Positions 1 to 59,030 of a stretch of 59,030 nt of DNA are shown piece after piece. The stretch lies in IMG/VR virus record IMGVR_UViG_3300048611_000080, positions 1-59,030 of that record. One strand, 5' to 3'. How positions within the stretch are numbered: position 1 is the first letter of the stretch; each line of letters starts with the position of its first letter. The notes beneath the pieces are model-generated. The model did not search any database and was not told the origin of the DNA. It worked only from the letters and a program-made list of their open reading frames with translations. The DNA is from a virus. Made by a program: the position numbers and the translations under genes.

Positions 1-127
1 CGGCGGAGGTAAAGAACAGGACCGTGTTGTTCGCCGGAACATAGACGATGCTCACGGCAGGACGCCTCCGCCGCCCTCAGTGGTGATGATCCAGTCATAG
101 TCGATATCGACATAGAAGGGATCGCCG
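1..127. repeat. Contig end overlap: 1-127 is identical to 58904-59030 (circular closure; unique genome length 58,903 bp)
   Basis: The first 127 nt (cggcggaggtaaagaacagg...gaagggatcgccg) match the last 127 nt of the window by direct comparison. 127 nt is a typical assembler k-mer overlap. Confidence 0.95.
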
Positions 128-588
128 ACGTCTTCGGTTCCAGGCGCGATCGGGGCGCCGCCGCCGGCCGGGGGCGAGGCTGACTCGTCGGTCCATTCTC
201 CAATCGTAGCGGCGGCGCCGTCGATAGTGACATGCGCGCCATCAAGAACGAAATGCACCTGGTTGGCGGCGAACTCCAGCACGTAGGCGAACTCGTCCGA
301 CCGCACGAAGGGACGCACCACGGCGAGACTGTCGCCCTCGGTCAGGACAGGTTCTCCGGCCTCATCGAGGACCGTATCGCCATCCTCCTCCAGCACATAG
401 GCAAGGGCGGTGACGTTGCGAATAAACTTCGAGCCTGGGGCCTTTGCCATCATTCCCTGGGTATAGGGAAAGATATTCTCCATCTGCTCGGCGAGGCGCG
501 AGTAGATATCGATGTCGACGCGCGCCAGCGTCGGCTTGTCTGCCTCGCCGCCGTTGAATGTCGCGACGGTGATGTTCGTTTTTGCCAA
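52..588 (-). CDS. Hypothetical virion protein between the tail tubular A-like and B-like genes
   Basis: 178-aa ORF. Its TGA overlaps the GTG start of the 769-aa gene (GTGA at 52-55, equivalent to 58955-58958 across the junction). No motif recognised. Confidence 0.6.
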   Translation of the reverse strand: MAKTNITVATFNGGEADKPTLARVDIDIYSRLAEQMENIFPYTQGMMAKAPGSKFIRNVTALAYVLEEDGDTVLDEAGEPVLTEGDSLAVVRPFVRSDEFAYVLEFAANQVHFVLDGAHVTIDGAAATIGEWTDESASPPAGGGAPIAPGTEDVGDPFYVDIDYDWIITTEGGGGVLP

Positions 589-2140: not shown

Positions 2141-2995
2141 TTACGCGATTGCGGCGGTGTCGTTGTGGACAGCACGGCAGATGCCGCGCGTCAGGATCGA
2201 CTTGGCGACGTGAACCGCCTTGACCCAGGTTTCGTACCTGTCCTGTCCGCCGTCGTAGTTGATGTAGGTCTCGGGCTCGCCGTCGATCTGGTGGCCGATG
2301 GCTGTGCCGTGGTAGATGTAGCACTTGGCCGTGGCCCCGCCCTTGCCGGTCAAGCCGGTGTGGCGAATCCAGTTGACGCCAAGCCATTTGCGGAACTGCC
2401 CGATCGGCGGAGCGCCTTCAACGAGAGGCTTGATCTCGTTGTAGTCGATCGACACGAAGTCATCGATCGTCTCCATTTGCGCATACCCGTTGGGAGTCAC
2501 GAGGCCCCAGACATTGCCGTCCGGCTCAACATCGTTGTTCCACAGCGTCGTGGTCCACGTCAGGAACGTCGACTTGACGCCGAAGTCGATGGCGGCGTCG
2601 GAGTTGATCGCCACCGAGGTGGCGTCGAGCTGGTCGATGATGGCCTGATCGATCGCCTTGTTGATCGAGGACCGGCCCTTCATCAGCTGGGCGTTGCGGG
2701 TGTTCGGGTTGCCGCGGAACAGGTCGAACTTGTCGATGCGGAACTTCTTGAAGTGTTCCTCCATCGTGCCCGAGACCTGCGAGAGGCCCAGTTGCGAGAC
2801 CGGGATATCGCCGTCACGGGTGCGGACATTGGCCGCGTCCGACGGGTCGACCACGTCCCAGTAGACCACTTCGCCCTTCTGCGCGCCGTCATTGCGGACG
2901 GTCTGCTTCAGAAGCGACTGGTTCCGGTCGTAGTCCATCTTGAATTCGTCGTTGTACTGCTCGCGAAATACGTTGGTGATCTGGTTAACAGCCAT
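2141..2995 (-). CDS. Major capsid protein (HK97-fold size class)
   Basis: 284-aa ORF directly after a scaffold-like gene in a portal-scaffold-capsid order. Strong SD (gaggatgag) 6-8 nt upstream of the ATG. Confidence 0.68.
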   Translation of the reverse strand: MAVNQITNVFREQYNDEFKMDYDRNQSLLKQTVRNDGAQKGEVVYWDVVDPSDAANVRTRDGDIPVSQLGLSQVSGTMEEHFKKFRIDKFDLFRGNPNTRNAQLMKGRSSINKAIDQAIIDQLDATSVAINSDAAIDFGVKSTFLTWTTTLWNNDVEPDGNVWGLVTPNGYAQMETIDDFVSIDYNEIKPLVEGAPPIGQFRKWLGVNWIRHTGLTGKGGATAKCYIYHGTAIGHQIDGEPETYINYDGGQDRYETWVKAVHVAKSILTRGICRAVHNDTAAIA

Positions 2996-45494: not shown

Positions 45495-48400
45495 TCAGTT
45501 CGCGGGCGGAGGCCCGAAGAAGATCGCGGCGGGATTGTCGGTCTCGCCGTTCCACAGGGCTTGGGCGCCAAGAACGGATGCCTGCACCTGTCCTGCGGGG
45601 TAGTGGAAGACCATGCCGGCCGCTCGGTTGGCCGGCTTCCAGAAGCTCTGATCGAAGTCGGCTTCAGCGACCGCCGAGCCCATCTGGTTCAACTCACTGA
45701 AGATCGCGAGGCCCGCCGGACCCTTGTAACCATAGCTGTCATCGCCGCGCGCCGAACCGGCGAACTGCGAGACGCCGACGAATGGACCAAAGAGGAACGC
45801 CACTTGCTCGCGCGCGTACCGCTCCGCCCACTCCTCAGGCTCGTCATCATCACCGATGCCGCGCGTGAGGAGGTCAAGGGTCATCTTGCCCGCAACGGGA
45901 ACCGCAGCGAGGATCATCAGGTCCAACGACAGCGCTGCGATCTGCCCAGCCGTTCGTGCATTCCTGACGCGCTGGACGCCGAGGTTATAGGTCGTGATCA
46001 TATAGCTCATGAAGTTGGTCAGGATGCGCAGAAGCGCCGCGTATTTGGTCCCGGCCCCCGATTGCATCGCCGCGAGCTGGTGAAGCTCCCCGCCGCCCTG
46101 TGCGTCCACCACCGCCTGATCCGCCATGGCGATGGCGTCGCCTTCCTCCGCTCCATAGTGCTGCGCTTTGAAATAAGCCCCGTACCAGGTCGGCATGTCG
46201 ACGCCGTAGAACTGAGTATTCGCCATCAGGGCGAAGCCGTTGCGCACCATCCAGCGGTGCGCCATGCGCAGGTGGCGGGGAATGAACGAAGGCGTCCACT
46301 TGTTCTTCACCGCATCTAGCAAAGACGCCATTTCCGGGCTCTGCGTCTGGCGCCGATGACGCATGAATTCCGAGCGTTCCATGATCCAATCGGCCGAGGA
46401 CTGAAGCGTTGCAGCATCCTTGCCCATGCGGGCGTAGCCCTTGGCGACCCATGGGCCGCCGACACGGACAACCGAGTTGGAAGCGCCGAGGACCTGCAAT
46501 GCCGCTGTCGATGCCTTCCACGCAAGGCCAACGACGGTGGCCCCATTCCTCAGATGAGCGAGAAGGCCGGAGGTTCCCTCCATCCCGAACTTGGCGGTCA
46601 CGAGCTGGCTGACGATGGTGTTGTAGATTTGCCGACCATGACGCCCGACAATCGCATCCTCGACCTCGCGTCGCTTAATGATCCTGCCGATGTCGAACAG
46701 GATTTCTTCGGTCGCGATCGAGCGGGCGACTTCGTCTAGGTGCTGAACGATGACATCCAGGGCGGAGAGACGAAGCGGCAGTGTGACTTTGCCCTTGACC
46801 CGCTCGCGCGTGTAGCCTTCACGTCTGCGCTGCCCGATATTGCCGGTCTGCGGCAGGGCGTCGGCCTCGATGGCCCGCTGGCCGGTTTTGGATGACAGCT
46901 TGGGATCGAACTTCAGAGGGTAATATCCGCCGGCATAGATGCCGAAGCGGGTCGCGATCTGAAGCGGCTGCTCTTTTGACATCGGCGCGCCATGGACGGA
47001 TTCATGCACGCGGTTTGCTTCCGGGAACCATGTGTCGAGGTAGTTCCATGTGCTCTGCACCCAGTCCCAATCGCGCTTGGAGAGCGTGTCGAGAACTTCC
47101 TGAACTTGCCCCTCGTTCCACCCATAGGCGTCCATGAGGCGCTTGCGGTTGACGGCATTGCCCCAGTTGAGGGCGATGGCGAGGCGGCCCTGTGTGGTCA
47201 GCGAGCGGCCGATTCCATTGAAGCGGCGGCGGTCACGATAGAAGCGTTCCTGCTCCGCCTGAGTGTAGGCGCCGAACAGCCCGATCACATCCTCGCCCAT
47301 CTGCTTGCGCAGGCTGGAGAGATGTGCAAATGCGGCGTTGAGCGGCTTCACGATGTAGCGCCAGAAGACCCCACCGTCCTTGCCGCCCGCGAACTGGTGC
47401 GCCAGGGAGTGCAGCGTCCGATGCATGGCGAAGTATTTCTGCACCGAGCCTTTGACGATCTCACCTGCCGTGTCCGTCTCGAGCGGTTCGGGCGGCTTCT
47501 GGTTCGGCTGATTGGTTTCGACCTCGGCGGCGATATCCTCCGCCGCCAGAGACAGCCGGCGGCGCTCGCCTTCCTTGATCAGCCGGTCCTTGAGCGTCGC
47601 CAGCCGCCAGATCATGTCGGCTTCCGCCCTGACGCTCTCCAGCTCTTCGACAGTGAGGCTCTTGTAGTTGCGGGCCTCTGCGCCTTCGGCCAGTGCGGCA
47701 AGCGCCTGTGAGCGTTCCAGCGCCTCTGCGGCGGCAACGCGCTGTTCCTCCGACGTCTTTGTCGGGTCCTGATAGGCGGCGAAAGGATCGATGCCGGCCA
47801 TCTGCGCCTGGATCCATTGGGCGCGGGACGCCCTGCGGCCTTCCTGCCGCTTGCTTTCCGGGCGGAGCATGTAGTCGTCGAGAAGCCCGTTCATCTGCGA
47901 GGCGTAATCTTCGCCTGCCGAGAATAGCCGCTGCTGCTTGGTCTTGGACCCGTAGGCGATCAGATGCTTGCGGGTCTTCTCAGCATCCTCCGCCATCTTC
48001 CGACCTTCGCGGAACATGTGAAGGTTGACGAGCTGATAGCGCTTGAACTGCGCCGCCTCGTCGAACTTGCCCTTTCCGGCAGCCTCCATCGCTTTCCTGC
48101 CCCAGCGCTGTTCGAGGATCAGCCACTGGTTGTAGTTCAGAACCTCACGCACCTGCTTGGTGCGGAGGTTTTCCTGCGCCTGCTGCTTGGCGAGATTGCC
48201 GGCGAATTGCTGGCCTGCCGCCTTGGCGAGAGCTTCGAGCTCGATCTCGAAATGCCGCTGCTGTACCTCGTTGCGGGCGAACTTCTCCGCTTCCTGCATG
48301 ATGGTCCCGTCCTTGAACGGGTCGCCGTGTCTGGCGATCATGCGCTGTTCGGTGAGCTGCTTGATGAGGGCGTTGCGGCGCGGACCCTCTCTCAGGCCCT

Positions 48401-51400
48401 GCAGGAGAGCGTTGCCGTCCGGCATGTCGAAGAACGGGGCCGCCTCATCGGGGCCGATGGCGTTTTCCGTCTGGCCCGTGAGTGCTGTCTCGATCTTGGC
48501 CCGCAGAACAGCGCCGTCTTTCTCGGCTATGTCGATGCCTTGACCGTCGAACCACTGTTCCCATGTCTCGGCGTCGCGGATTTTCTGGACCGTGTCGATG
48601 TCAGTCCGGCTATAGAGTGGCCCCTGCCCGCCGACGTCATTGCCAAGCGCGTCGAGAAAGTCGTTGTCGTCCGGCGGGCTTTCGCCGCTGAAATATCCTT
48701 CCTCCCAAGCCGCAACCGCTGCATCATGAATACTGTAGGAGCGAACGCGCTTGTTGTCTTTGGTCTCGTCGGCCAGCAAACCGGGGGCAGTCTTGCGCTC
48801 CCCGATCATCGACTTGATCTCGCCGCCCGGATCGCGGATGCCGCTATAGGCTATCTTGTCGTTGCCTGAGCCGATGTAGCGCCTGCGGGCGAGGAACTGC
48901 CAGAGCGAGCGAGGCTTCTTCTGGTTGAGCGTCCGGCGCACGTCTCGCGCGATCTCTAGGAACTGGTCCGCATCCGTCGCCGCCGCACTGTAGGCGCGGA
49001 CCTCGGGAGGAAGCTTGGCTAGCGCGTCCTCGCCATATTGCTCGCGGACGGCATTGAGGTCGAGGCGCATGGGCGGGAGGTTAGGGGGTGGCACGGTGCG
49101 GCCCGAACTGCCAGTCTGCGCCAGCATTTCCTCATCGTTCGTCCACGTGCTTCCGAGTTCCTGATCGGCTTCGGGCTGGCGAACCATGGCGCCTTCGACG
49201 AACACGTTGATGTGGCCTGACCACGGATCGCGGACACCGACATAGCCTTCGGCTTTCAGCCTCGCGAACAGCGCTTTGGCCTGCGGCGTGTCGTCCGGCT
49301 TCTCGTAGTTCTCAAGTCCTCGGGACGTTTCCTCATCCAGATCGAACAGCTTGCCGTTGATCCTCCAAGCATCGATCTTACCTGTCTGTCCGCCCCACTC
49401 GGCGCCGATCCACGGCTCCTCTGCGGAGTACAGACCGTTGCCGAGACGCCCCTTTTCCACCTCGCCAAGAACGTCTTCGCCGCTGCCGCGATAGACAAGC
49501 AGGCCGCTACTGACTTCGCCCGATGCTGGGGCCTTTATGTCGGCTTCCGTGCCTGATGTGGCATACCACGCATGGACCCCGGCCTTGTCCATGTCGGCCA
49601 GAGTCGGCCACTTCTTCGGGTTGTAGACGCCGTGCTCAAGCTTGATGTCGCCGAGAGCGAACACGACGCGCGCGAGGTCATGGTGGTAGCCATCGTTCCC
49701 GCCTGGAAAGGCGATGATCCGGCCAGCATCGGTCCTGAACAGCAGGATGATCGGGACGACATTGTCATCCATCATCCGCTGGCGCAGGGCTGCCAGACTC
49801 TCGTCCGTGGCGTTCGGCTCGAAATATTTGGTGTTGTCTAGGAAGCCGTCAGCCTGCAACAGAGCGGACACGGCTTCAGCTTCGATAGCTGCCGCGTCGA
49901 TGAAGTCGCCCTGCGTTGACCTCCAACCGCCGCCTGACAGCCACTGGTAGGCGCGCTGTTCCGGACGCTCGTCGACTTCGGATGTGACCTCGGCGCGGAC
50001 CTGACGTTCTTCCGATCGCCACCAGGCTTTCTGGTTACGCTCGTAATCCTCCATGAGCCGGGCCATGAGGTCGGCTTCGGCCCGCTCTCTGGCGGCTAGC
50101 AGACGCGCCTTGGTGCGCTCGAATGCCTTCTCGGTGATGACGCCTTTGTCCAGCAGCGCCTTCGCCATCTGCTCGCTGTCACGCGCTGAGGTCTGGGTCG
50201 CGGCCTTGATGGCTTCCTCGGTTGCAAGCATGCGGTCGAATACGGCGCGGATTTCGTCGTTGAGGCGGACGCGGCGCCCGATCTGGGTTATGCTCTTATA
50301 GATGCGGAGGAGCCATTGCTTCAGCGTGGCAAAGACCGAGCGGAGACTGGTCGATGGGGCCTTGCCTTCGCGAAGATAGGCCTCGAATGTCTCGGCGAAG
50401 GCTTCGTGGACGTCGCGTCCCTCTTCCGTGACCCGGCCCTGCGCATCGAACATCGCCGTCCAGTTTGGCGACTTGCCCTTCCATTCGAGGATGGCGGCTA
50501 GCTGTTCCTGCACGAACGGGTGAGGCGTCTCGGTTTGCGCCATCTTCCACAGCGTATCAAGATACCAGTGAGAGGCTTCGTGGACGAAGGTGGAGAGATT
50601 GGAGGATTCGAACAGGCGGATGACAGAGCGGTCGGCGCGGGGCGTGAATGAACCGCGCATGTCGCCTTGGGCGAACGCCATCTTCGAGCGCGCCGCCTCG
50701 ACCCGGTCGGCATACTTCGACCGCATCGCCCTGATCTGGTTCTTGGCCTTGGCCGGATCGCGATCCGGGAACATGACCTGCGCGATGTCGGCAACGTCGG
50801 CGCCGCGCGCCAGCATGCGGATCACGCCCTCAGTCTCAGGCGCTTGCGGTCTCCCGCCGACCAGCTTTTCGGATGGGAACCCCTTCTTCTCCGCCCGGCC
50901 AAGGTAGACCGACACAGCGGTCTCGGTGACCTTGCCCTCCTCTCCGCCCATGCGGACGGCAATCTCATCGTTTGTTAGACCTTCGCTGGCGGCCTTCCAC
51001 GCCTCAAATTCGTTTTCGCTCAAGACACTGGACGCACGTGTCAGGGTTTCGTCATCGATTGGTGCGGGCGTCCGTCTGGTTTGTTGCGGAAGAGCGTCGG
51101 CGTCTTCCTCGCCGGTCAGCGCCGCGACGACATCGAACCCCATCTCTTTCCACAACGCTTCCGGGTCCTGCCCCGTCCGCTCCGCCAGCGTCACCACCAT
51201 CTCGCCTGCAATGGCTGCCTGCGTGTTGGCGGTCTCGGTGTTGAACAGCTTGGTGTTGGCTACCTGCTCGCGTATGGTTTCGCGAACGCGATCAGCGGAG
51301 TCGGCGAAGGTCTGTTCGGTCGTGGCCGAGGTTTCCCGCGCCTTCTGCTCCTCCTCGAACACGGCTTTCATGGCCTCGTGTTCCTTGGCCGTGAAGTCGT

Positions 51401-53285
51401 CAGCGCGGAGGCGCATGTTCGGGGCAAGGGCGGCGTGCAGGGTTTCCCCTGATATGCCGATCTCTTTCTTTGCGGTTCCGAGGACTGCGGCGTAGTTGCC
51501 GGCAGGGATCACCACGTCATCACCCGACTGGATCGCCGCGACCATCTCGGCAGGATCGATGCGGAACGCCTGGGAGAGCTGTTCGGGGGTCAGGTCGTTG
51601 GCCTGCGCGAACTCGTTGATCGCCTCGGACGACACGCGCACGCTCTCCAGCGGGCCATCCTTGGTCACCGCTGCAACGGCTTCCCGGTATTTCTCAGGCA
51701 ACCGTGTGAGGAGCTTGGAGTCCTTTGCTCCCTGCGCCATGGCTTCGAAGGTGCGCTCCAGATCTTCGGAGCGTCGTTGCTGGGCGTTCTGCTCGAATTG
51801 CCGCGCCAGGGTGTCGACGCCCTGCGCCAGGGTCGTTTGCGCGCCGGACTGGACAACGGTGGCGACCGCCGTTTGCAGCGCCGCCGATGGCCGTTCGGCC
51901 AGGAACTCCGCCAGCGTCTTCTCCGGATTTAGGCTCGCCCATGTCGAGGCATCCTGAAGCAGTGTCGCCGCCTGCTCGCTTGCCCCTTCGGCGATGAGGT
52001 TGTTGCGGAGGGTCGTGAGGAACCCGGTCTTATTCGCGATGTCGCCGAACAGCTGCGACATCGGAATTTTCTCGGTGACGTATTCGATGGCGCCCTGAGT
52101 GACTGCATATTCCGTCGCCTCGTAGACGCTCAGCCCCTGTTCGCGGGCCTCGACATAAGACGGGCCTGTCGTGGCAATCGTCGCAGTCCCGATCGCCGGC
52201 AGCGGCGTCTTTGTAATCGCCGAGACGACAAGGCCTGGAGACTGGACCAGAAGAGACTGGACGCCGGAATAGACGCCGGCCTCGATGTCGTTCATCCCCG
52301 TAGGCGTCAGGCGCTCGCGCTCCCGCTTTGCCCCCAGCGCCAGCTGACCCAATGCACGCGAGGTCTGCGGCAGCAGATCAGCTTCATCGCGCGGCTTCTG
52401 CGGCAGGCGCCCGCTCTCGATGAACGCTCCCCGCTGGGCCTGCGTCATCTTTTCGCCGGTAATCGACATCAGCGCAGGCGATGACGGGCTGCGGAGATAG
52501 TCATCGATGAAGTCGGCGATCATCTGGCCCGTGCCGGCAAAGCCCTCGCCCAGTGCGGCTGGCGCCGATTGAGCGCCGGCCCCGATCAGCTTTCCGGCCC
52601 GCTCCCACCATTCAAGATTGTCGAGATCGTCGTGCGCGACATCGAAGTTCGCTCGGTCGCGCGCCCAATCACGCAGGAGCGGGGCGGATTCATAGACGCG
52701 GTCGATCTCGCGGGCCTGATCTGCGGCCCGGAAGCTTTCCCGGTTCTGCTCGACCTCGATCCGGTTGACGCCGGACTTGTCTGCAAGGTCGATATCCTGC
52801 GCCGCCTGTTCGGGCGTGGTCGGGCTGTCGAGCAGGCGGGAGCGGGTTTCGGACGCCAGCCGGGCTGCGTCGCGCTCGGCCTTGTAGGCGCGCAGATCGG
52901 TAATGTCGGCTTCGCTGAGCCCCAAACTGGGCGGTCCGCCGATTCCATCCTCACCGGACCCATATTGAGGTTCGCCCTCGATGTCGGCTCGCGTCAGGGC
53001 CGGGGACCGGCCTAAAGATGTATAGCCGCGTATCGGATCGTCTTCATCCGGCTCGATCACGGGTGCGGATGTCGAGCCTAGATATTCTCCCTGCGAACGC
53101 TTTGCCGGCCAGCCGGGGAGCGGATTGTCGCCGATCAGCGGATCGACCTTCGGCCTGGTGACCAAGGGCGTTTCGATGGCGCGCTTCAGCCTCGCCTCGT
53201 TCTCCTCGTTGACGCGGGCCATGGCGACTTCTTCGGCGAAGTCGGCGATGGCTCGACTTGCCGGAGAGCGAGGAACCGTAGCCAT
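45495..53285 (-). CDS. Giant (2596-aa) virion-associated polyvalent/internal ejection protein (T7 gp16 position)
   Basis: Single uninterrupted ORF. Contains an HExxH zincin motif (FVHEASHWY, nt 50568-50582) with a downstream HEAFAETFEAY, two LuxR/sigma-region-4-like HTH segments (aa 755-800 and 821-858, nt about 50712-51023), coiled-coil stretches and hydrophobic segments near the C-terminus. Confidence 0.8.
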   Translation of the reverse strand: MATVPRSPASRAIADFAEEVAMARVNEENEARLKRAIETPLVTRPKVDPLIGDNPLPGWPAKRSQGEYLGSTSAPVIEPDEDDPIRGYTSLGRSPALTRADIEGEPQYGSGEDGIGGPPSLGLSEADITDLRAYKAERDAARLASETRSRLLDSPTTPEQAAQDIDLADKSGVNRIEVEQNRESFRAADQAREIDRVYESAPLLRDWARDRANFDVAHDDLDNLEWWERAGKLIGAGAQSAPAALGEGFAGTGQMIADFIDDYLRSPSSPALMSITGEKMTQAQRGAFIESGRLPQKPRDEADLLPQTSRALGQLALGAKRERERLTPTGMNDIEAGVYSGVQSLLVQSPGLVVSAITKTPLPAIGTATIATTGPSYVEAREQGLSVYEATEYAVTQGAIEYVTEKIPMSQLFGDIANKTGFLTTLRNNLIAEGASEQAATLLQDASTWASLNPEKTLAEFLAERPSAALQTAVATVVQSGAQTTLAQGVDTLARQFEQNAQQRRSEDLERTFEAMAQGAKDSKLLTRLPEKYREAVAAVTKDGPLESVRVSSEAINEFAQANDLTPEQLSQAFRIDPAEMVAAIQSGDDVVIPAGNYAAVLGTAKKEIGISGETLHAALAPNMRLRADDFTAKEHEAMKAVFEEEQKARETSATTEQTFADSADRVRETIREQVANTKLFNTETANTQAAIAGEMVVTLAERTGQDPEALWKEMGFDVVAALTGEEDADALPQQTRRTPAPIDDETLTRASSVLSENEFEAWKAASEGLTNDEIAVRMGGEEGKVTETAVSVYLGRAEKKGFPSEKLVGGRPQAPETEGVIRMLARGADVADIAQVMFPDRDPAKAKNQIRAMRSKYADRVEAARSKMAFAQGDMRGSFTPRADRSVIRLFESSNLSTFVHEASHWYLDTLWKMAQTETPHPFVQEQLAAILEWKGKSPNWTAMFDAQGRVTEEGRDVHEAFAETFEAYLREGKAPSTSLRSVFATLKQWLLRIYKSITQIGRRVRLNDEIRAVFDRMLATEEAIKAATQTSARDSEQMAKALLDKGVITEKAFERTKARLLAARERAEADLMARLMEDYERNQKAWWRSEERQVRAEVTSEVDERPEQRAYQWLSGGGWRSTQGDFIDAAAIEAEAVSALLQADGFLDNTKYFEPNATDESLAALRQRMMDDNVVPIILLFRTDAGRIIAFPGGNDGYHHDLARVVFALGDIKLEHGVYNPKKWPTLADMDKAGVHAWYATSGTEADIKAPASGEVSSGLLVYRGSGEDVLGEVEKGRLGNGLYSAEEPWIGAEWGGQTGKIDAWRINGKLFDLDEETSRGLENYEKPDDTPQAKALFARLKAEGYVGVRDPWSGHINVFVEGAMVRQPEADQELGSTWTNDEEMLAQTGSSGRTVPPPNLPPMRLDLNAVREQYGEDALAKLPPEVRAYSAAATDADQFLEIARDVRRTLNQKKPRSLWQFLARRRYIGSGNDKIAYSGIRDPGGEIKSMIGERKTAPGLLADETKDNKRVRSYSIHDAAVAAWEEGYFSGESPPDDNDFLDALGNDVGGQGPLYSRTDIDTVQKIRDAETWEQWFDGQGIDIAEKDGAVLRAKIETALTGQTENAIGPDEAAPFFDMPDGNALLQGLREGPRRNALIKQLTEQRMIARHGDPFKDGTIMQEAEKFARNEVQQRHFEIELEALAKAAGQQFAGNLAKQQAQENLRTKQVREVLNYNQWLILEQRWGRKAMEAAGKGKFDEAAQFKRYQLVNLHMFREGRKMAEDAEKTRKHLIAYGSKTKQQRLFSAGEDYASQMNGLLDDYMLRPESKRQEGRRASRAQWIQAQMAGIDPFAAYQDPTKTSEEQRVAAAEALERSQALAALAEGAEARNYKSLTVEELESVRAEADMIWRLATLKDRLIKEGERRRLSLAAEDIAAEVETNQPNQKPPEPLETDTAGEIVKGSVQKYFAMHRTLHSLAHQFAGGKDGGVFWRYIVKPLNAAFAHLSSLRKQMGEDVIGLFGAYTQAEQERFYRDRRRFNGIGRSLTTQGRLAIALNWGNAVNRKRLMDAYGWNEGQVQEVLDTLSKRDWDWVQSTWNYLDTWFPEANRVHESVHGAPMSKEQPLQIATRFGIYAGGYYPLKFDPKLSSKTGQRAIEADALPQTGNIGQRRREGYTRERVKGKVTLPLRLSALDVIVQHLDEVARSIATEEILFDIGRIIKRREVEDAIVGRHGRQIYNTIVSQLVTAKFGMEGTSGLLAHLRNGATVVGLAWKASTAALQVLGASNSVVRVGGPWVAKGYARMGKDAATLQSSADWIMERSEFMRHRRQTQSPEMASLLDAVKNKWTPSFIPRHLRMAHRWMVRNGFALMANTQFYGVDMPTWYGAYFKAQHYGAEEGDAIAMADQAVVDAQGGGELHQLAAMQSGAGTKYAALLRILTNFMSYMITTYNLGVQRVRNARTAGQIAALSLDLMILAAVPVAGKMTLDLLTRGIGDDDEPEEWAERYAREQVAFLFGPFVGVSQFAGSARGDDSYGYKGPAGLAIFSELNQMGSAVAEADFDQSFWKPANRAAGMVFHYPAGQVQASVLGAQALWNGETDNPAAIFFGPPPAN

Positions 53286-54983
53286 CTACTGCGCCGCCTC
53301 GATCTGCCGGTAGATCGCCATGGTTTCAGCCGGCGTCGGCTTGTTTCCTGTGTTGCGGTAGAACGTGTCCTCGATGCGCGCTATGATATCCGGGTCCAGT
53401 TGCCCGGCCCCCACCATGCCCTCCATGCCGGTCCCAATAAGATCGTTCACGGCGAGGCCGAACTGTCCCGGCGCTGCAAAGCCCCGACTGCCCATGGCGC
53501 GAGCGATGAAGTCCCGCGTCTCGTCTTTGGTGATGGGCTTGCCGGTCGCCGCCTGGTCCTTGGCGTAGCCGCGCAGCAGGCCAAGCACCTCCGTGGCCTC
53601 CTTTTTCTGATTCTGCGTTCCGATCTTCCAGTCCTCGGGCGCAACGCGCTTCAGCTCCTGGGTCAGTTCCGTCATCGACGCATCGACTGGCTGCGATACC
53701 TGGCCCTGTATCCGGCGCTTGGTGATCTCGTCACGAACCGCCTGCTGGTCTTCGAGCGTGAGATTGTCGAACTTCCGCCTGGCGTCAGTCGACCACTTGT
53801 CGTAACCGGCGACGAACCGCTCCGGCAGCATGGTCTCAAGCTCGTTGCGGAAATTGGTCGATTGGATTTTCCAGAACTGCTTTTCGGTATAGCCCATCGT
53901 GCCTTCAGCATCGCGGGCGTTCTCGAATGCACGGATGGAGCCCAGCCGGTCGGGGTCGATTTCCGCACGCAAGGACGGCGGTGCATTTCCGATCTTGCCA
54001 CCCCCTTCGACATGAGCCCACATCGCCTCTTCCAGTCCGTCTTGATGTTCGTTTTCCGCCTGATCCGCCATGAGGCGCAGCCGGTTGCCGCGCTCCTCGA
54101 CTTGCGTTCGGAGCCTGGCGTCTTCGATCTTGCCGGTTTCCTTGACGAACCTGCCGTAATCGCCTTCAGCCTTGGCCCAGAGATCATCGGTCATCGTGAC
54201 CACACGGGCATCGAACTTGGCGTCCTGCAGACCCTTCTCGATCGCCTGACGCTTGGCCGGGTCGAGTTCCTTGTAGTTGGCCTTGAACTGGGCTTCGGCC
54301 TCGGCCACGCGACCGTCACGGACCAACGCATCGACATTGGCCGTGACCCGCGCCGTCTTGTCGTCGACAATCCACTTGTCGAGTTGGGCAAGCTGTAGGG
54401 CTGCGTCGTCCTTTTCCAGCACGCCGCTCTGCGCCTGCCTACCGATCAGATTGCGCTGGGCGTTCACTGACTCAACGAACGTCTTTTCCTCGATCGCCAT
54501 ATCCCCGATTGCGGCTTGCAGCGCAGCGGATTCCTTAATGATCCCGGCGCGCATATCGGTAAGCTGACGCTTGCGGGTTAGGTCTCTCGCCTTCAGGACT
54601 CCATTCGACTGCCATTGCGTCTTGGCGCGTTCGGTCCACATCGCCTTAGCGCCCTGCGGAACGATCTCGGCATTCTTCGAGATGACCGCATCCGAGGCTT
54701 CCTTGAACCGGGTCTCGATGGTTGCGGCGTCGATGGTCCCGTCGGTTTCAAGCTTCCGGTATTCCCGGTCGATGTCCTCGCGGGTTTTCCTGTCGGCCTC
54801 TGTGACCTTCCTGTCGATATCGGCCTTTTCGATCCGTCTGGCGACCTCGCCTAAGGCGCTAGCAGCTTGTGCAGCCGCCTCCCATGCTCCGCTTGAGCGG
54901 TCTTCCACCACGGGAACATTGACGACGCGGCGGGTCTGCTGGGCAGGGCCAGCCAAATCAACCGCTCTTGGAATTCTAGCCAT
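53286..54983 (-). CDS. Internal virion protein (T7 gp15 position)
   Basis: 565 aa, highly charged and helical. Abuts the giant ORF start. Confidence 0.55.
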   Translation of the reverse strand: MARIPRAVDLAGPAQQTRRVVNVPVVEDRSSGAWEAAAQAASALGEVARRIEKADIDRKVTEADRKTREDIDREYRKLETDGTIDAATIETRFKEASDAVISKNAEIVPQGAKAMWTERAKTQWQSNGVLKARDLTRKRQLTDMRAGIIKESAALQAAIGDMAIEEKTFVESVNAQRNLIGRQAQSGVLEKDDAALQLAQLDKWIVDDKTARVTANVDALVRDGRVAEAEAQFKANYKELDPAKRQAIEKGLQDAKFDARVVTMTDDLWAKAEGDYGRFVKETGKIEDARLRTQVEERGNRLRLMADQAENEHQDGLEEAMWAHVEGGGKIGNAPPSLRAEIDPDRLGSIRAFENARDAEGTMGYTEKQFWKIQSTNFRNELETMLPERFVAGYDKWSTDARRKFDNLTLEDQQAVRDEITKRRIQGQVSQPVDASMTELTQELKRVAPEDWKIGTQNQKKEATEVLGLLRGYAKDQAATGKPITKDETRDFIARAMGSRGFAAPGQFGLAVNDLIGTGMEGMVGAGQLDPDIIARIEDTFYRNTGNKPTPAETMAIYRQIEAAQ

Positions 54984-54986
54984 GCA

Positions 54987-55493
54987 TCATCCGCCGAAGG
55001 TGGCTTTCCACGACGACGAGCCCACGGCGCTTCCGATGCTGGACAGCAGCGAGGCCGTCGCCCCATAGCTCGCGGCCTTGCCCATGGCCTGAAAAGACCG
55101 CGCCTGTTGCGCGCCTGTGGTCCGCGTGACGGCGGCGGCGTAGCGGTCCTGCCGTGCCGAATCCTCTGCCTCGGCCATTGTCAGTAGGCTTTCCATGGAC
55201 GCTTCACGGATGGTCTCGTCGGTGATCGCCAGAACGGTGGCGTCGGTGGTGTCCCCGCCGCCGGCCGCGGCCGCCGCCCGCTGCGACGACATGATCTCCT
55301 TGGCCCGCTTGGCGATGCGCTCGGAATTGTAGGTCCCGACCGCCAACCCCTGGCGCGCACGGGTTTCGAGCTGGCGGGCCTCGGCTTCAGCCGCCATCTG
55401 GGCGCGCTCCGCCGATATCTTGTAGGCCTGCTCTTCCTTTTTGCTGGCCTTGTACTGGGTGACGGCCCCGAAAATGTCGAAAATAAATGACAT
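54987..55493 (-). CDS. Internal virion protein (T7 gp14 position)
   Basis: 168 aa, Ala-rich and helical, with a Gly/Ser-rich C-terminus. Confidence 0.5.
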   Translation of the reverse strand: MSFIFDIFGAVTQYKASKKEEQAYKISAERAQMAAEAEARQLETRARQGLAVGTYNSERIAKRAKEIMSSQRAAAAAGGGDTTDATVLAITDETIREASMESLLTMAEAEDSARQDRYAAAVTRTTGAQQARSFQAMGKAASYGATASLLSSIGSAVGSSSWKATFGG

Positions 55494-55572
55494 TACGACC
55501 TTTCACGGACCGGGGCGGCGTCAGCGCTTACCGACCTCTCGTCGCGAGGAATTGTTGGCATTTGTTATGGAG

Positions 55573-56046
55573 CTAAGACCGCTTGGGAGAACGCCCGGTC
55601 AGCCAGCCCCATCTCCTTCCTGCGCGGATCGCCATGATTGCATAGGCGCCCACTCCGAATTCCTTCGCTAAGACCTTGGTTGGCCTGTCGTCTGCGTCGA
55701 TTGCCAAGACTTGGTCCATGGTCAGCTTGGCGCACGGATGCCTACCATGCCTTAGGTCGGTTCCGTGTTCATGCATGTCAGCCATGTTCTCGGCGCGCGT
55801 AGCCCACTTTAGATGCAGCGGATGCATACACCCTGCGTGACCCTGCCCGCACTTATGCGCCGCCTGCGCTCGTGGAAACGGGGGCGGTCCATTGACAAGC
55901 TCACACATGTATCTGTGGGCGAGCACCAACTTGCCGCCGCGTCGAATCTGGCCGTACCCCATGTTGTTGCGGGTGAACGGCCAGATCAGACACTCTTCGG
56001 AACTGTAGTTGATGTGATCCCGAATAAACCGCTCGCACTTGCCCAC
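55573..56046 (-). CDS. Free-standing HNH homing endonuclease (HNH_3-like)
   Basis: CLIWPFTRNNMGYGQIRRGGKLVLAHRYMCELVNG...AHKCGQGHAGCMHPLHLKWATRAENMADM. Confidence 0.78.
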   Translation of the reverse strand: MGKCERFIRDHINYSSEECLIWPFTRNNMGYGQIRRGGKLVLAHRYMCELVNGPPPFPRAQAAHKCGQGHAGCMHPLHLKWATRAENMADMHEHGTDLRHGRHPCAKLTMDQVLAIDADDRPTKVLAKEFGVGAYAIMAIRAGRRWGWLTGRSPKRS

Positions 56047-56088
56047 GTTTCGACTCCGCTTTACTGGAGCCTCACGATGGATTACGTT

Positions 56089-56117
56089 CTATCACCACGT
56101 CAATCACTTTGTGATAG
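56089..56117. promoter_or_regulatory. Inverted and direct ATCAC repeats upstream of the RHH gene (operator candidate)
   Basis: CTATCAC (56089-56095), ATCAC (56103-56107), GTGATAG (56111-56117). Confidence 0.45.
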
Positions 56118-56126
56118 GTAGCGATA

Positions 56127-56297
56127 GTGGCCGAACGCACTGCCCAGATCAGTTTCAAGATGACGCCGGAGCTTAAGTCTGCCATCGAAGCTGCCGCGAT
56201 TGCCGATTCTCGCTCCGTCTCCTCCCTAGTGATCAAGGTCCTGACCGACTGGGCCAAGACGCACGGCCATCTGCCCGACAAGCCAAAGCGGCGTTAG
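56127..56297 (+). CDS. Ribbon-helix-helix (CopG/Arc-type) protein, 56 aa, antisense to the late operon
   Basis: Manual translation (below the ORF-track cutoff): VAERTAQISFKMTPELKSAIEAAAIADSRSVSSLVIKVLTDWAKTHGHLPDKPKRR. RHH pattern, high third-position GC. The GTG is the first start after an in-frame stop. Confidence 0.62.
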   Translation: MAERTAQISFKMTPELKSAIEAAAIADSRSVSSLVIKVLTDWAKTHGHLPDKPKRR

Positions 56298-56652
56298 TTA
56301 GGACAAGTATCCACTCCGCCTCAGAAGGGTCCACGGGGCGGAACCCGAGACGCTTGAGCCATTCCCTCGCCCGCGGAATTGTGTCGTCCAGCTTCGCCCG
56401 GATTTCGGTCGCTCCTGCCCGCCCTACGGCGTGGAGCAGGTCCAGCGACTTCCGGTGGATGCCGTGCGGAAACTCTCCCCTGCCCCCGAAGGACGCCCAC
56501 CAGCGGTTATCATCCCCGACAAAGCAGCAGCCGATCGCCACCAGATCGCTATCCCGCCGGCAGGCGAACCCCACCATGCGGGACGGATCGGGATAGACCT
56601 CGACCCCCCATTCCTCGAAATGCTCGGGGCCTAGGTCGTCATACCGGATCAT
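56233..56652 (-). CDS. GNAT-like acetyltransferase-fold protein (tentative)
   Basis: Start MIRYDD in an ATGA overlap with the tubular-B-like stop. ...WWASFGGRGEFPHGIHRKSLDLLHAVGRAGATEIRAKLDDTIPRAREWLKRLGFRPV resembles the GNAT beta4-alpha3-beta5-alpha4 core. The last roughly 30 codons have low third-position GC and the final 65 nt (56233-56297) overlap the RHH gene. Confidence 0.42.
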   Translation of the reverse strand: MIRYDDLGPEHFEEWGVEVYPDPSRMVGFACRRDSDLVAIGCCFVGDDNRWWASFGGRGEFPHGIHRKSLDLLHAVGRAGATEIRAKLDDTIPRAREWLKRLGFRPVDPSEAEWILVLTNAALACRADGRASWPSRSGP

Positions 56653-58958
56653 CCGGACTTTTCGTTGGTTTCCAGATGCGGAACCATGCCGAGTAAGGTT
56701 GCCGGACCCGCCGTGGGCATCAGTATGCATACCCTCGGGTCCTTGCCGGATGCGCCCTCGAAGGGCAGGTTCTTGTCGTCGGTGATCTCCACCATGGCGG
56801 CGTCGTAGCTGGCCGGATCGGCCCCGCGGAGCACGCTCATGTTCGTAAAATCGCGTCCCCATTTGAGCGCGCCCGGCGCCGTCCGGTAGGGCAGAAGCCC
56901 GATCCGGGTTATCTTCCGGTCCTGGGTAAGCGCCGTTCCCGTGTTGGCCCCGCCCATGACGCGAGGAGATTTGTATTTCCCATCATAGAGCAGCCCGACA
57001 ACGGCATAGGTGGCGGCGTAGGTCAGTGTGATCGCCCCGCCCGAGACCGTGAACGGACCCTGCTGATAGCCGCCGGTCCAGGCATGGACGGTCTCGCCCT
57101 CGAGATGGTCGAGACCGGTGATGCTGGTGGTCGAGACGCCGGAATACTCGACCGCATCCCTCAACCGCCAGACATCCTCCATGTTCTCCCAGGCTTCGGG
57201 AGCGAGCTTTTCCAGATGGCGAACGGTCGAGCCGTCAATCGTCCGGCGGACGACGAAGTAAATCTGATCCTCGACGTCTCCGGGAACGCAGCAGACGCTC
57301 TCGTAGAAGGCCCCCTCGTCGATCAGCCGGCACCAGGCGACGACGCCCTCGGTCGGCTCGAACAGGAGCACCGCCATGTGTCCGTCATCGCAGGGTATCC
57401 ATATCCTTGGCTCCGGATTGTACTGGACCGCCCCCTCCAGAGCGCCATCGTCGGTTCCCTCATCCCCGAAGATGAACCGGTGCAGCCGGGTCAGCTCGTT
57501 GAGTTCGTATCTCTCCCCGGTAAGCTCCATGCGGAACAGCTTGCGGCGGCTACGGTCGATGAACCCGACATCATCATCGATGACAAACCCATCCGCCGTG
57601 GTCGAGGACCCGCGCCGCGATCTCGGCCTGGATTTAGCCGTGGTCGGCGTGATCACATCGTCGAGCGCGTTGGTCCCGATCTCGGCCTCGCGCGCATCCA
57701 TCCCGATCATCAGCCGGGATATGCCCTTCATCCAGACAGCCGACCCCCAGCCGCCGGTGACCCTCCGGGTAAACGCCTTGGCGTCGTCGGCTCCGATCTC
57801 GAAGCCTTCGAAATCATCCGATTCCGAGGCCCAGAATCGGTCGTCGCGCCCAAGCCACAGCCTGCCATCGGCTAGAGCGGGGGCGGCAGGCCAGCCGGCG
57901 ACGTCCGACCAGGCGCCGAACGCCCAGTCTGTGGTCGCCGTCGTCTTACCGACCGGGCGCAGGATGTCGATCGTCACAGAGTTGTCGGCATTGACCTGGT
58001 AGATACGAGCGATGCCTTCGGTCGATCCGTTGGCGTGGGTCAGCGAGACGGTTGCGGTTCCACTCGTCCATGCCGTGGCGAGAACGCGGTAATAGATGAT
58101 CTGGTTGTCGAGATCGTCGTCATAAGTGGTCGAGGTCGTGGTGGCGTGGGTCTGGTAGGTGACCCAGTTGAGTTCGTTGCCGACGCTGCGCTGGAGCACC
58201 AGGGTTCCGCTGAACGTGCCCGTGATGTCGAGCGTGAACTTGCGATTGTCGCCGGTTCCGGTGACCCGGACGTTTTCGGTATGCTCGTCGATCGCATCGA
58301 TGGACGCCGTTATGAACTGGCCCTGGTGAAGTAGCCTGATCAGGGCGCCGGCATGGGCGGCGCGGAAGACCGGGGCCGAAGCTGAGAGCGTGGCCGAGCC
58401 GGTGCGGGAGTTGGCTGTCATCGTCGTTGATGTGACGTTGAGATTGGCGAAGGGTCCGCTTTCCGGCTGGTACTGTCGCAGGCTCCACGATTTGGCGCCC
58501 CTGCGCTCCAATACGCGGGTCTGCACGCCCTTGGTCGCAATCCAGGCGACATCGAAGCTCTGCTCAAACCGCAGGGTCCTGAGATGCGTTTCCTGCCATG
58601 GCGTCGTGAGCGTCAGGTCTCCCCCGGTGACAGCCTGGAAGCCCGAGAGTTCAGCCGCGCCTAAATCCGCATCGACATAGCCGATGTCCGGCAGGCGGAA
58701 CTCGACATAGTAGGGCGAGACCCCGGGCGTGATGGTGATAAGATGCTCGCCGGGGTAGAGCGTGATATCGGTGAATATCTCCTGTCCGCCCGCGCTGGTT
58801 CCCGCCCGCATCTTGAGCGGGCGCCGGTCGGTCGAGAACTGGAACGTGACCTCGTCGTCCGGCGCTGCCGTCGTGATCTCCGAGCGCGCCACCGCCTCGC
58901 TGCCGGCGGAGGTAAAGAACAGGACCGTGTTGTTCGCCGGAACATAGACGATGCTCAC
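56649..58958 (-). CDS. Tail tubular protein B / nozzle (T7 gp12-like)
   Basis: 769 aa (T7 gp12 is 794 aa). Position follows the gp11-like gene. The GTG start lies inside the terminal overlap. Confidence 0.6.
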   Translation of the reverse strand: MSIVYVPANNTVLFFTSAGSEAVARSEITTAAPDDEVTFQFSTDRRPLKMRAGTSAGGQEIFTDITLYPGEHLITITPGVSPYYVEFRLPDIGYVDADLGAAELSGFQAVTGGDLTLTTPWQETHLRTLRFEQSFDVAWIATKGVQTRVLERRGAKSWSLRQYQPESGPFANLNVTSTTMTANSRTGSATLSASAPVFRAAHAGALIRLLHQGQFITASIDAIDEHTENVRVTGTGDNRKFTLDITGTFSGTLVLQRSVGNELNWVTYQTHATTTSTTYDDDLDNQIIYYRVLATAWTSGTATVSLTHANGSTEGIARIYQVNADNSVTIDILRPVGKTTATTDWAFGAWSDVAGWPAAPALADGRLWLGRDDRFWASESDDFEGFEIGADDAKAFTRRVTGGWGSAVWMKGISRLMIGMDAREAEIGTNALDDVITPTTAKSRPRSRRGSSTTADGFVIDDDVGFIDRSRRKLFRMELTGERYELNELTRLHRFIFGDEGTDDGALEGAVQYNPEPRIWIPCDDGHMAVLLFEPTEGVVAWCRLIDEGAFYESVCCVPGDVEDQIYFVVRRTIDGSTVRHLEKLAPEAWENMEDVWRLRDAVEYSGVSTTSITGLDHLEGETVHAWTGGYQQGPFTVSGGAITLTYAATYAVVGLLYDGKYKSPRVMGGANTGTALTQDRKITRIGLLPYRTAPGALKWGRDFTNMSVLRGADPASYDAAMVEITDDKNLPFEGASGKDPRVCILMPTAGPATLLGMVPHLETNEKSG

Positions 58959-59030
58959 GGCAGGACGCCTCCGCCGCCCTCAGTGGTGATGATCCAGTCA
59001 TAGTCGATATCGACATAGAAGGGATCGCCG
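58904..59030. repeat. Second copy of the contig end overlap (identical to 1-127)
   Basis: Direct sequence comparison. Confidence 0.95.

Follow-up and report, generated by a model that had tools for sequence, protein, structure and literature searches.

The window analysed here comprises 59,030 nt of viral DNA. In the region under study a tail tubular B-like (nozzle) gene, a 139-aa open reading frame (ORF) with a GNAT fold, a free-standing HNH endonuclease gene and a gene for a T7 gp14-like internal virion protein lie in this order on one strand, and a 56-aa RHH gene lies between the second and the third of them on the opposite strand (Table 1). Coordinates, strands and the 65-nt overlap between the 3' ends of the RHH ORF and the 139-aa ORF (56233-56297), as given in the initial annotation, were all confirmed on rechecking. 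The length of this overlap is no more than the chance expectation. The start codon of the 139-aa ORF is joined to the TGA of the tail tubular B-like gene in an ATGA (tcat at window positions 56649-56652, the reverse complement). This coupling is conserved in relatives, so that late expression of the 139-aa gene, which had been presumed, is plausible. Both ORFs are real genes: seven close homologues and 142 family representatives were found for the 139-aa ORF, and the homologues of the RHH ORF, at 55-80% identity, gave dN/dS values of about 0.06-0.24 with dS near saturation. Scans of the 59-kb window for tRNA genes and Rfam families were empty.

Table 1. Features of the locus (window coordinates)
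Feature	Position	Strand	Remarks
Internal virion protein B (IVP-B; T7 gp14-like) gene	54987..55493	-	168 aa; phrog_418 internal virion protein E 1.7e-12; Pfam T7_gp14 E 0.031
Relic of the ancestral GNAT-fold 3' end	55503..55514	-	CCCGGTCCGTGA = Pro-Gly-Pro-stop, severed from the gene by the insert
Insertion (proposed mobile cassette)	55515..56299		785 bp; divergent RHH and HNH genes, shared intergenic region, nothing else
HNH endonuclease gene	55573..56046	-	157 aa; GTG start, GGAG 9 nt upstream; late-operon strand
Putative RHH operator	56089..56127		CTATCAC-N15-GTGATAG; a third half-site, GATAG, adjoins the start codon
Putative RHH DNA-binding protein gene	56127..56297	+	56 aa; GTG start; weak profile matches, two-helix model, homologues
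GNAT-fold ORF	56233..56652	-	139 aa; ATG start
C-terminal tail (21 aa) and stop of the GNAT-fold ORF	56233..56298	-	non-homologous; antisense to the RHH 3' end
Conserved GNAT-fold core (residues 1-118)	56299..56652	-	T7 gp13/IVP-A slot; GC3 0.78
Tail tubular B-like (nozzle) gene	56649..58958	-	769 aa; phrog_376 tail protein E 1.9e-107
Cassette-free junction sequence			...GAGTGGATACTTGTCCTCCCGGTCCGTGAAAGG...

The GNAT-fold gene in the virion module

Scans of the 139-aa protein with Pfam, NCBIfam and PADLOC gave no usable match, and the PHROG scan gave phrog_1249 ('acetyltransferase') at E 0.006; hence, a family alignment and a structure model were needed for the fold assignment. The AlphaFold model (pLDDT 95.7) shows the mixed beta-sheet/helix topology of GNAT proteins (b1-a1-(a2)-b2-b3-b4-a3-b5-a4-b6-b7), with its elements at E2-6, H9-15, E26-33, E36-45, E51-57, H65-78, E83-87, H95-102 and E113-117. 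When this model was compared with the PDB by Foldseek, every one of the best 50 of 120 matches at E<=0.001 was an acetyltransferase or GNAT-domain protein by its description (E 1e-5 to 3e-4, TM 0.46-0.74), and small viral GNAT proteins matched at TM up to 0.85. A PDB sequence profile search with the family gave only marginal GNAT matches (RimI, E 0.24), and nothing was found by blastn of positions 54900-57400 or tblastn of the 139-aa protein against a phage collection. The GNAT-like assignment made in the initial annotation is therefore borne out by the model and the fold search, but the acetyl-CoA site expected with it is not canonical. At the b4-a3 junction the pyrophosphate-binding motif Q/R-x-x-G-x-G/A is replaced by xPxx[VIL]H[RK] in this family (F-P-H-G-I-H-R in the window); the position of the last Gly is occupied by His in 65 of 68 family sequences and the first Gly is kept in only 10 of the 68. 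Members of the family are also shorter than usual GNATs.

The gene occupies a well-defined slot. The tail tubular B-like protein is 71-78% identical in eight related loci (L001, L003, L004 and L015-L019), and tblastn with it returned matches under annotated tail tubular protein B of Pelagibacter and Burkholderia podoviruses. Eight relatives lack an RHH gene here and keep a small GNAT-fold gene directly before the gp14-like virion gene. In L001, L003 and L004 the gp14-like gene, 62-65% identical to that of the window, follows the GNAT-fold gene directly, with neither an RHH nor an HNH gene and no sequence between them, and the same cassette-free order was found by tblastn in L015-L018. In the cultured podoviruses Burkholderia KL4 and Pelagibacter Greip an annotated acetyltransferase gene stands in front of IVP-B and overlaps tail tubular B at the latter's end, and the order tail tubular B, small gene, IVP-B is common to the window (before the insertion), L001, L003, L004, L015-L018, KL4, Greip and T7. 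This slot has been described as that of an acetyltransferase-like IVP-A family including T7 gp13, a link published at HHpred level (PMC4819975). The profile of the family studied here matched KL4 gp54 with E 5.7e-4, aligning the His-Arg motif and a W..LGF motif; the match to Greip gp9 (E 0.23) and that of family alignment A3 to T7 gp13 by hhalign (E 0.085, probability 0.7%) were not significant. The members of the T7 gp13/IVP-A family (KL4 gp54 'GNAT family acetyltransferase', BcepC6B gp13, Greip gp9) share with the window gene the slot and a size of about 120-150 aa, whereas the window copy alone bears a foreign 21-aa tail. On this synteny, the core of the 139-aa gene appears to be an ordinary, conserved phage virion-module gene.

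A 785-bp insertion at the 3' end of the GNAT-fold gene

Comparison of collinear relatives places the presence or absence of 785 bp at a defined site: the stretch is missing in L001, L003, L004 and L015-L018 and was seen in this genome only. Homology on the left side ends at 56300-56304 in the comparisons with L001, L003 and L004 (at 56300 against L001). On the right side the match to L004 begins again at 55514. Here lies the relic CCCGGTCCGTGA, which pairs in the alignment with the 3' terminus of the L004 gene, CCTGGTCCGTGA; the spacer beyond it and the ATG that opens the gp14-like gene are likewise shared. These boundaries put the insertion within the final codons of the GNAT-fold gene. The GC content of the insert is 0.579, versus 0.611 for the window. 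The idea that the gp14-like gene owes its start codon to the insert was rejected, since L004 shows the spacer plus ATG to be ancestral.

Because the insertion cut off the native stop codon, the ORF reads on for 21 codons into the insert, and the 65-nt overlap with the RHH gene is a by-product of this, its length being set by the position of the first stop in frame. The seven closest homologues are 118-123 aa long and all lack the 21-aa tail. C-termini past about residue 116 vary freely among the relatives, and the L015 version, of 157 aa, reads into the gp14-like gene in another frame. The drop in third-position GC that had been described is real within residues 119-139 (GC3 0.43, GC2 0.86, against GC3 0.78 for residues 1-118), but it does not hold just before the overlap, where residues 100-118 are at 0.68. 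The overlapped part of the RHH gene has GC3 0.86 in the RHH frame, and the values of the tail are the codon signal of this frame on the opposite strand. Thus, the tail is best explained as read-through into the insert, antisense to a sequence selected as RHH coding, and not as the evolved, overprinted extension proposed earlier.

The RHH gene, its putative operator and the HNH gene

The profile matches of the 56-aa protein were weak but concordant. The Pfam matches, to NikA-like at E 0.001 and to TacA1 at E 0.0033, did not reach the cut-off; the TacA1 match covered model positions 2-38 of 80 with 17.8 bits (cut-off 21). Among the PHROGs, Arc-like repressor families were matched from E 2.3e-4, and the best match, at E 1.8e-6, was phrog_2685 ('partition protein ATPase'); a PDB sequence profile search with the protein gave nothing significant. 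The monomer model (pLDDT 68) has an extended N-terminus, helices at 14-26 and 31-45 and a 10-residue tail. Upstream of the gene, in a region that the initial annotation had called repeat-rich, an inverted repeat is indeed present at 56089-56117 (arms 56089-56100 and 56106-56117), with a further GATAG at 56123-56127. These repeats, the profiles and the model together indicate that the 56-aa protein looks like an RHH protein with its own putative operator, in agreement with the original call.

The putative operator is kept upstream of the RHH homologues in L009, L023 and L026. In L012 and L014 it is changed coordinately, to CTCTTAC...GTGAGAG or CTAAGAG...AAGAG, together with a change of the RHH strand residues from QI to TL. 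Conserved in five other contexts and covarying with the strand residues, the repeats behave as a putative RHH operator would. Nowhere else in the 59-kb genome do the half-sites pair. No site passed a sigma-70 consensus promoter scan of positions 55300-56900, and terminator-like hairpins in the scanned region were at chance level; the RHH homologues elsewhere retain their own promoter-like region along with the inverted repeat.

The HNH protein has an HNH nuclease domain (phrog_59 HNH endonuclease, E 1.5e-19; phrog_1872, E 4.5e-19; Pfam HNH_3, E 4.9e-4) and a C-terminal helix-turn-helix-like region. Its homologues, at 35-55% identity, sit in unrelated phage contexts with the motif region conserved. 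A search of viral contigs with the HNH protein found no relative, and no paralogue of either the RHH or the HNH gene was found in the window. In four of the six contexts in which RHH homologues were examined (L009-11, L012/13, L023) they adjoin an HNH gene; in the other two, L014 and L026, no HNH gene lies within the short contigs and the RHH gene heads other small genes. The RHH-HNH link therefore seems to be frequent, not obligate. When the RHH alignment was searched against viral contigs nothing was found, and against genome contigs it gave one distant RHH beside an integrase in an Omnitrophota MAG, which was uninformative.

Proposed history of the locus and rival explanations

We consider it about 80% probable that what is seen here is the scar left by a mobile element that entered the late (virion) operon of a temperate podovirus whose gene order is T7-like. 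The ancestral order would have been tail tubular B, the small ATGA-coupled GNAT-fold gene and the gp14-like gene. A cassette consisting of the HNH gene on the late-operon strand, the RHH gene on the opposite strand and an 80-bp intergenic region with the putative inverted-repeat operator would then have entered the last codons of the GNAT-fold gene, severing it from its stop and extending its translation into the insert. An RHH dimer would bind the operator and repress its own promoter and probably also the divergent HNH promoter, and the HNH gene would be expressed mainly by read-through of late transcripts. The endonuclease may cut cassette-free alleles in co-infecting relatives, whereby the cassette would spread by homing. 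Homing is inferred here rather than observed, since the searches yielded no relative with the cassette at this site and no exact donor of it; RHH matches went no higher than 80% identity and HNH matches no higher than 50-55%. The GNAT-fold protein would act in virion assembly or ejection, as T7 gp13 does, and not as a toxin. Going one step further, RHH and HNH may form a self-contained, self-regulated mobile cassette in which the repressor travels with the nuclease gene, on either side of it, and silences the nuclease, as it might in the prophage, until late transcripts read through. We put this forward tentatively, as a possibility to which we give rather less than even odds. If it is true, the control logic would be akin to that of the C-proteins of restriction-modification systems; a literature search on RHH proteins and HNH homing endonucleases in phage found no such cassette or control logic described.

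In a rival reading, the RHH gene has no functional tie to its HNH neighbour. It would instead be an independent self-regulated accessory module of the Arc/Mnt type, to whose conserved region HNH genes home, both having been co-converted here; its role could be the regulation, in the lysogen, of something else, or damping of a leaky late operon by convergent transcription. The same promoter-like region and putative operator precede different cargo, namely an 84-aa membrane protein (L012, L014), an 80-aa protein (L026) and HNH202/203 (L009, L023), and three HNH lineages, only 33-40% identical to one another, lie on either side of the RHH gene, the pattern that one would expect of parasites on a conserved site. 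However, the insert has just these two genes, RHH and HNH, between its boundaries, which points to their having moved as one unit; the operator pairs found only at this locus leave no other obvious target in the genome, and no cargo lies downstream of the RHH gene here. An independent module is therefore rather unlikely in our view. The fallback reading in the initial annotation, that these might be simple autoregulated accessory genes, was nearly right as far as the RHH gene is concerned. An artefact of assembly, with the cassette mis-joined to the phage contig, would account for its presence in a single genome lineage, but its probability is practically negligible: an independent Logan assembly of SRR33185946 is base-for-base identical in the region, the 7,904 bases compared showing 0 mismatches, both flanks run precisely into the phage operon with the 12-nt relic, and the two ends of the contig overlap by 127 nt, closing it. 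Hardly more credible is the view that selection maintains the 21 added residues as a new, functional C-terminus, in true overprinting on the RHH gene. In its favour, no break interrupts the ORF and two assemblies contain the extended form, but the tail has the low GC3 described above, lacks any homologue and stands where relatives, including the 157-aa version, vary freely.

The initial annotation had proposed a type II toxin-antitoxin-like pair (TacAT/AtaRT/KacAT-like) in convergent arrangement, in which the RHH protein or antisense transcription restrains a late acetyltransferase toxin. In the TacAT, AtaRT and KacAT systems the toxin acetylates aminoacyl-tRNA and arrests growth. An RHH protein and a GNAT-fold protein are indeed encoded side by side here, the GNAT fold was confirmed, the RHH protein weakly matches TacA1/DUF1778 (JGI labels a 98%-identical copy DUF1778), and the phage carries an integrase, so that a lysogenic state exists. 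Unlike in those systems, however, the two genes are convergent, not co-operonic, and have separate histories: the GNAT-fold gene keeps its slot alone in the eight related loci and in the cultured phages, the RHH gene arrived with the HNH gene on an insertion seen in this genome only, and among the RHH homologue contexts examined none has a GNAT neighbour. The toxin-binding C-terminal part of the antitoxin is missing, the 56-aa protein ending after two helices and a 10-residue tail and its TacA1 match stopping at model position 38 of 80. The GNAT-fold protein, for its part, has about 118 residues of its own, belongs to a virion-module family and lacks the canonical CoA motif; no GNAT toxin was present among its PDB sequence matches at E<=1 or the 50 fold matches listed, and NCBIfam and PADLOC gave no match. 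The toxin-antitoxin reading is thus largely refuted by these comparative data, and we consider it very improbable.

The insertion reading is mainly of corrective value. An RHH gene beside a GNAT-fold gene invites annotation as a toxin-antitoxin pair, and the JGI label already points that way; in comparative context, the two appear to be unrelated neighbours joined by an insertion. The event is an ordinary mobile-element insertion, and it would provide a clear, datable example of a homing-endonuclease cassette in the last codons of a gene of an essential operon, where the gene was not destroyed but gained a tail and now overlaps another gene in antisense. The recurrence of the RHH-operator module beside HNH genes offers a modest lead on the regulation of phage homing endonucleases.

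Free-standing HNH homing endonuclease genes are known in phages, e.g. I-HmuI of SPO1 and the mob genes of T4. The HNH gene described here, a putative homing endonuclease gene, resembles them in being intact, with a C-terminal helix-turn-helix-like region, present or absent between collinear relatives, located at the end of a conserved gene on the operon strand and provided with homologues in unrelated phages; it differs in that a divergent RHH gene with a putative operator lies inside the same insert. In P22, the immI region with its small RHH repressor genes arc and mnt lies among the late/structural genes of a temperate podovirus; its transcription units diverge, and its operator is an inverted repeat. 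Although the partner here is an HNH endonuclease and not an antirepressor, and no sequence relationship is detectable beyond the RHH superfamily, the RHH gene of the window is similarly embedded and divergent, has a putative operator and gives the Arc-like PHROG matches mentioned above.

The virion gene and its GNAT-fold product

The phage genome in the window is closed: its two ends (1-127 and 58904-59030) form an exact 127-nt repeat, giving a circle of ~58.9 kb (about 58,903 bp). Genes for portal/adaptor, large terminase and endolysin are present, no tRNA genes or Rfam families were found anywhere in the window, and the phage is probably temperate, because a tyrosine integrase is encoded. 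The late operon, on the minus strand, is arranged as in T7: capsid, tail tubular A-like, tail tubular B-like, the 139-aa gene, gp14-like, a 565-aa gene and a 2596-aa giant. The giant protein differs in length among relatives (2980 aa in the related locus L001).

Features of the locus and of the surrounding phage genome
Feature	Position	Strand	Remarks
Tail tubular A-like gene	52-588		late operon, running on across window ends
Capsid gene	2141-2995		late operon, running on across window ends
Tyrosine integrase, 441 aa	30840-32165	+	phrog_1, E 6e-15
Giant protein, 2596 aa, IVP-D position	45495-53285	-	precomputed LPD22 domain match
gp14-like internal virion protein gene	directly after relic stop and spacer	-	phrog_418, E 1.7e-12
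Relic of ancestral stop	55503-55514		split from GNAT-fold gene by insert
Insert, 785 bp	55515-56299		RHH and HNH genes only
HNH endonuclease, 157 aa (HNH157)	55573-56046	-	phrog_59, E 1.5e-19; Pfam HNH_3, E 4.9e-4
Inverted repeat upstream of RHH	56089-56095 (CTATCAC), 15 nt, 56111-56117 (GTGATAG)		then GATAG abutting start codon
Ribbon-helix-helix (RHH) ORF, 56 aa	56127-56297	+	GTG start
139-aa ORF (GNAT fold)	56233-56652	-	
Tail tubular B-like gene, 769 aa	56649-58958	-	phrog_376, E 1.9e-107

Both small ORFs, the 65 nt shared by their 3' ends (56233-56297), the overlap of the 139-aa ORF's ATG with the TGA of the 769-aa gene (56649-56652 reads tcat, the reverse complement of ATGA) and the repeats upstream of RHH were all found where the initial annotation had placed them. 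Its suggestion that the 139-aa protein is GNAT-like was right at the fold level, because an AlphaFold model built from 68 family sequences (pLDDT 95.7, pTM 0.87) showed GNAT topology and, of 120 Foldseek matches in the PDB at E<=0.001, the best 50 all carried acetyltransferase or GNAT-domain descriptions (E 1e-5 to 3e-4, TM 0.46-0.74). Small GNAT proteins among viral models also matched (TM up to 0.85). The acetyl-CoA signature Q/R-x-x-G-x-G/A is absent; at that site the family reads x-P-x-x-[VIL]-H-[RK], with His66 present in 65 of the 68 sequences, and Asp89, Trp98, Gly103 and Phe104 are near-invariant. No GNAT toxins occurred among the PDB sequence matches or the fold matches listed for this family, and NCBIfam and PADLOC searches returned nothing for the protein.

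An exhaustive profile search gave 142 family representatives, mainly of 110-150 aa. In three related loci (L001, L003 and L004) the start of the homologue overlaps the tail tubular B gene by the same 4 nt, and the gp14-like gene comes directly after it; the same order was observed in L015-L018, at 44-45% identity. The tail tubular B protein matches those of Burkholderia phages KL4, BcepC6B and vB_E332 and of many Pelagibacter podoviruses, in which the gene overlapping its end is annotated as acetyltransferase. In KL4 and Greip, tail tubular A and B are followed by the acetyltransferase gene (141 and 150 aa) and then by the next virion gene, which is IVP-B-like in the Greip annotation and a 'hypothetical protein' in KL4. 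The family profile matched KL4 gp54 (E 5.7e-4) with the His-Arg and W..LGF motifs aligned. Comparison with T7 gp13, which occupies the internal virion protein A (IVP-A) slot, was not significant (E 0.085), so that assignment to the gp13 family depends on synteny and on the paper describing an acetyltransferase-like IVP-A family (PMC4819975).

Insertion of a 785-bp cassette

The locus is an ordinary, tidy insertion of a mobile cassette into a podovirus virion gene of known type. Seven close homologues of the 139-aa protein (72-86% identity) are all 118-123 aa long, and their alignment stops at about residue 118, leaving the final 21 residues without counterpart. DNA homology with L001 (on the window's reverse strand) extends to 56300 (...GAGTGGATACTTGTCCT) and then ends; for L003 and L004 it ends at 56302 and 56304. 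The L004 alignment resumes at 55514 with CCCGGTCCGTGAAAGGTCGTAATGTCATTT. Its L004 counterpart, CCTGGTCCGTGA, ends the GNAT-fold gene there (three final codons plus stop), and the spacer and gp14-like ATG come next. The ancestral stop has therefore been kept as a relic, 785 bp away from its gene. The RHH stop codon ends 2 nt within the left boundary of the insert, and the RHH and HNH genes diverge from an 80-bp intergenic region containing the repeats.

The junction lies within codon 118 and the frame then stays open for 21 insert codons up to the first stop, which explains both the 65-nt overlap and the codon-position signal. The reported decrease in third-position GC is real in the tail (residues 119-139), with an abrupt onset at residue 119. 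The tail combines low GC3 with a GC2 of 0.86 because selection on the overlapped stretch acts in the RHH frame, where the GC3 is 0.86.

In L015 (3001-3474), a more distant relative, the 157-aa version has 40 C-terminal residues overlapping the gp14-like gene in another frame. This shows that the C-terminus of this gene has been extended repeatedly; C-terminal ends are loose across the family. A terminator-like hairpin on the RHH strand (56644-56656, +, CCGGATCATCCGG, then a T-rich run) sits exactly at the tail tubular B/GNAT-fold junction, ~350 nt past the RHH stop; the region holds 2 terminator-like sites vs 1.1 expected by chance.

The RHH operator and the HNH genes

The RHH homologues share 55-80% identity, with dN/dS of about 0.06-0.24 at a dS near saturation. 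Six contexts were found, the window included: divergent HNH157 (window); a divergent 92-aa gene and a downstream overlapping 202-aa NUMOD4-HNH gene (L009-L011); a downstream overlapping 203-aa HNH gene (L023); a divergent 227-aa HNH gene, 40% identical to that of the window, with a downstream gene for a putative 84-aa membrane protein (L012/L013); a divergent 91-aa gene with the same 84-aa gene (L014); and a downstream 80-aa gene (L026). An HNH gene thus adjoins RHH in 4/6 contexts. This recurrent pairing of operator-bearing RHH and HNH endonuclease genes is the sole mildly new element, and no description of it was found in a full-text literature search. HNH157 homologues (35-55% identity) lie in unrelated phage contexts (by a DNA polymerase gene, by lysozyme and BNR protein genes, among small genes), scattered as free-standing homing endonuclease genes are. 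No paralogues of RHH or HNH were found in the window.

About 90 nt upstream of RHH are conserved across homologues, including a -35/-10-like pair and the putative operator. The half-site (G/A)TGATAG accompanies the strand SQISFK or AQISFK (window, L009, L023), GT(A/G)AGAG or CTAAGAG accompanies ATLSFK (L012, L014), and L026 has the right arm GTGAGAG with a strand of the first group. This coordinated change, together with the conserved upstream region, supports the repeats as a self-operator that RHH would bind. No second half-site pair was found elsewhere in the window.

At its GTG start (56123-56129, GATAGTGG) the window has one A fewer than the homologues (GATAGATGG; compared with L009 1610-1617 and L023 231-238), which leaves the frame intact and alters the start codon and the spacing to the third half-site. 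The operator spacer (56100-56110, - strand GATTGACG) carries a GTCAAT (TTGAC on the minus strand) conserved in the window, L009, L023 and L026; a leftward promoter embedded in the operator might use it as its -35, but no convincing -10 was found at normal spacing from it. The conserved 84-aa protein (L012 1541-1795, L014 1595-1849; 76% identical between both) follows RHH with a ~50-nt overlap, has a hydrophobic core and may be membrane protein cargo under RHH control.

Proposed mechanism and alternatives

Late transcripts would run from tail tubular B through the GNAT-fold gene and the cassette into the gp14-like gene, antisense to RHH and sense to HNH. RHH would bind its operator and repress its own promoter, and probably also leftward transcription into the HNH gene, whose product may help the cassette to spread into relatives that lack it. 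The GNAT-fold protein would take the role of IVP-A in virion assembly or ejection, its 21 extra residues presumably being a tolerated accident.

The initial annotation had instead proposed a toxin-antitoxin-like pair. Its observation was confirmed and its fold calls hold, but this interpretation was wrong and retains very little probability: RHH and the GNAT-fold gene are not co-inherited, no RHH homologue in the other contexts neighbouring a GNAT gene and no RHH gene lying at this site in L001, L003, L004, L015-L018, KL4, Greip and the other phages compared, and neither the operon structure nor the antitoxin architecture fits. Because RHH also heads non-HNH cargo, it might be an independent regulated module merely targeted by HNH genes, which we consider unlikely, with a probability of roughly one in eight. 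Insertion of a mobile cassette also accounts for the tail; a selected, overprinted C-terminus is highly improbable, since the tail is without homologue and has a GC3 of 0.43, whereas that of the core (residues 1-118) is 0.78. Least probable is a mis-assembly joining cassette to phage, as the Logan assembly of SRR33185946 was identical to the window across the 7,904 bases compared.
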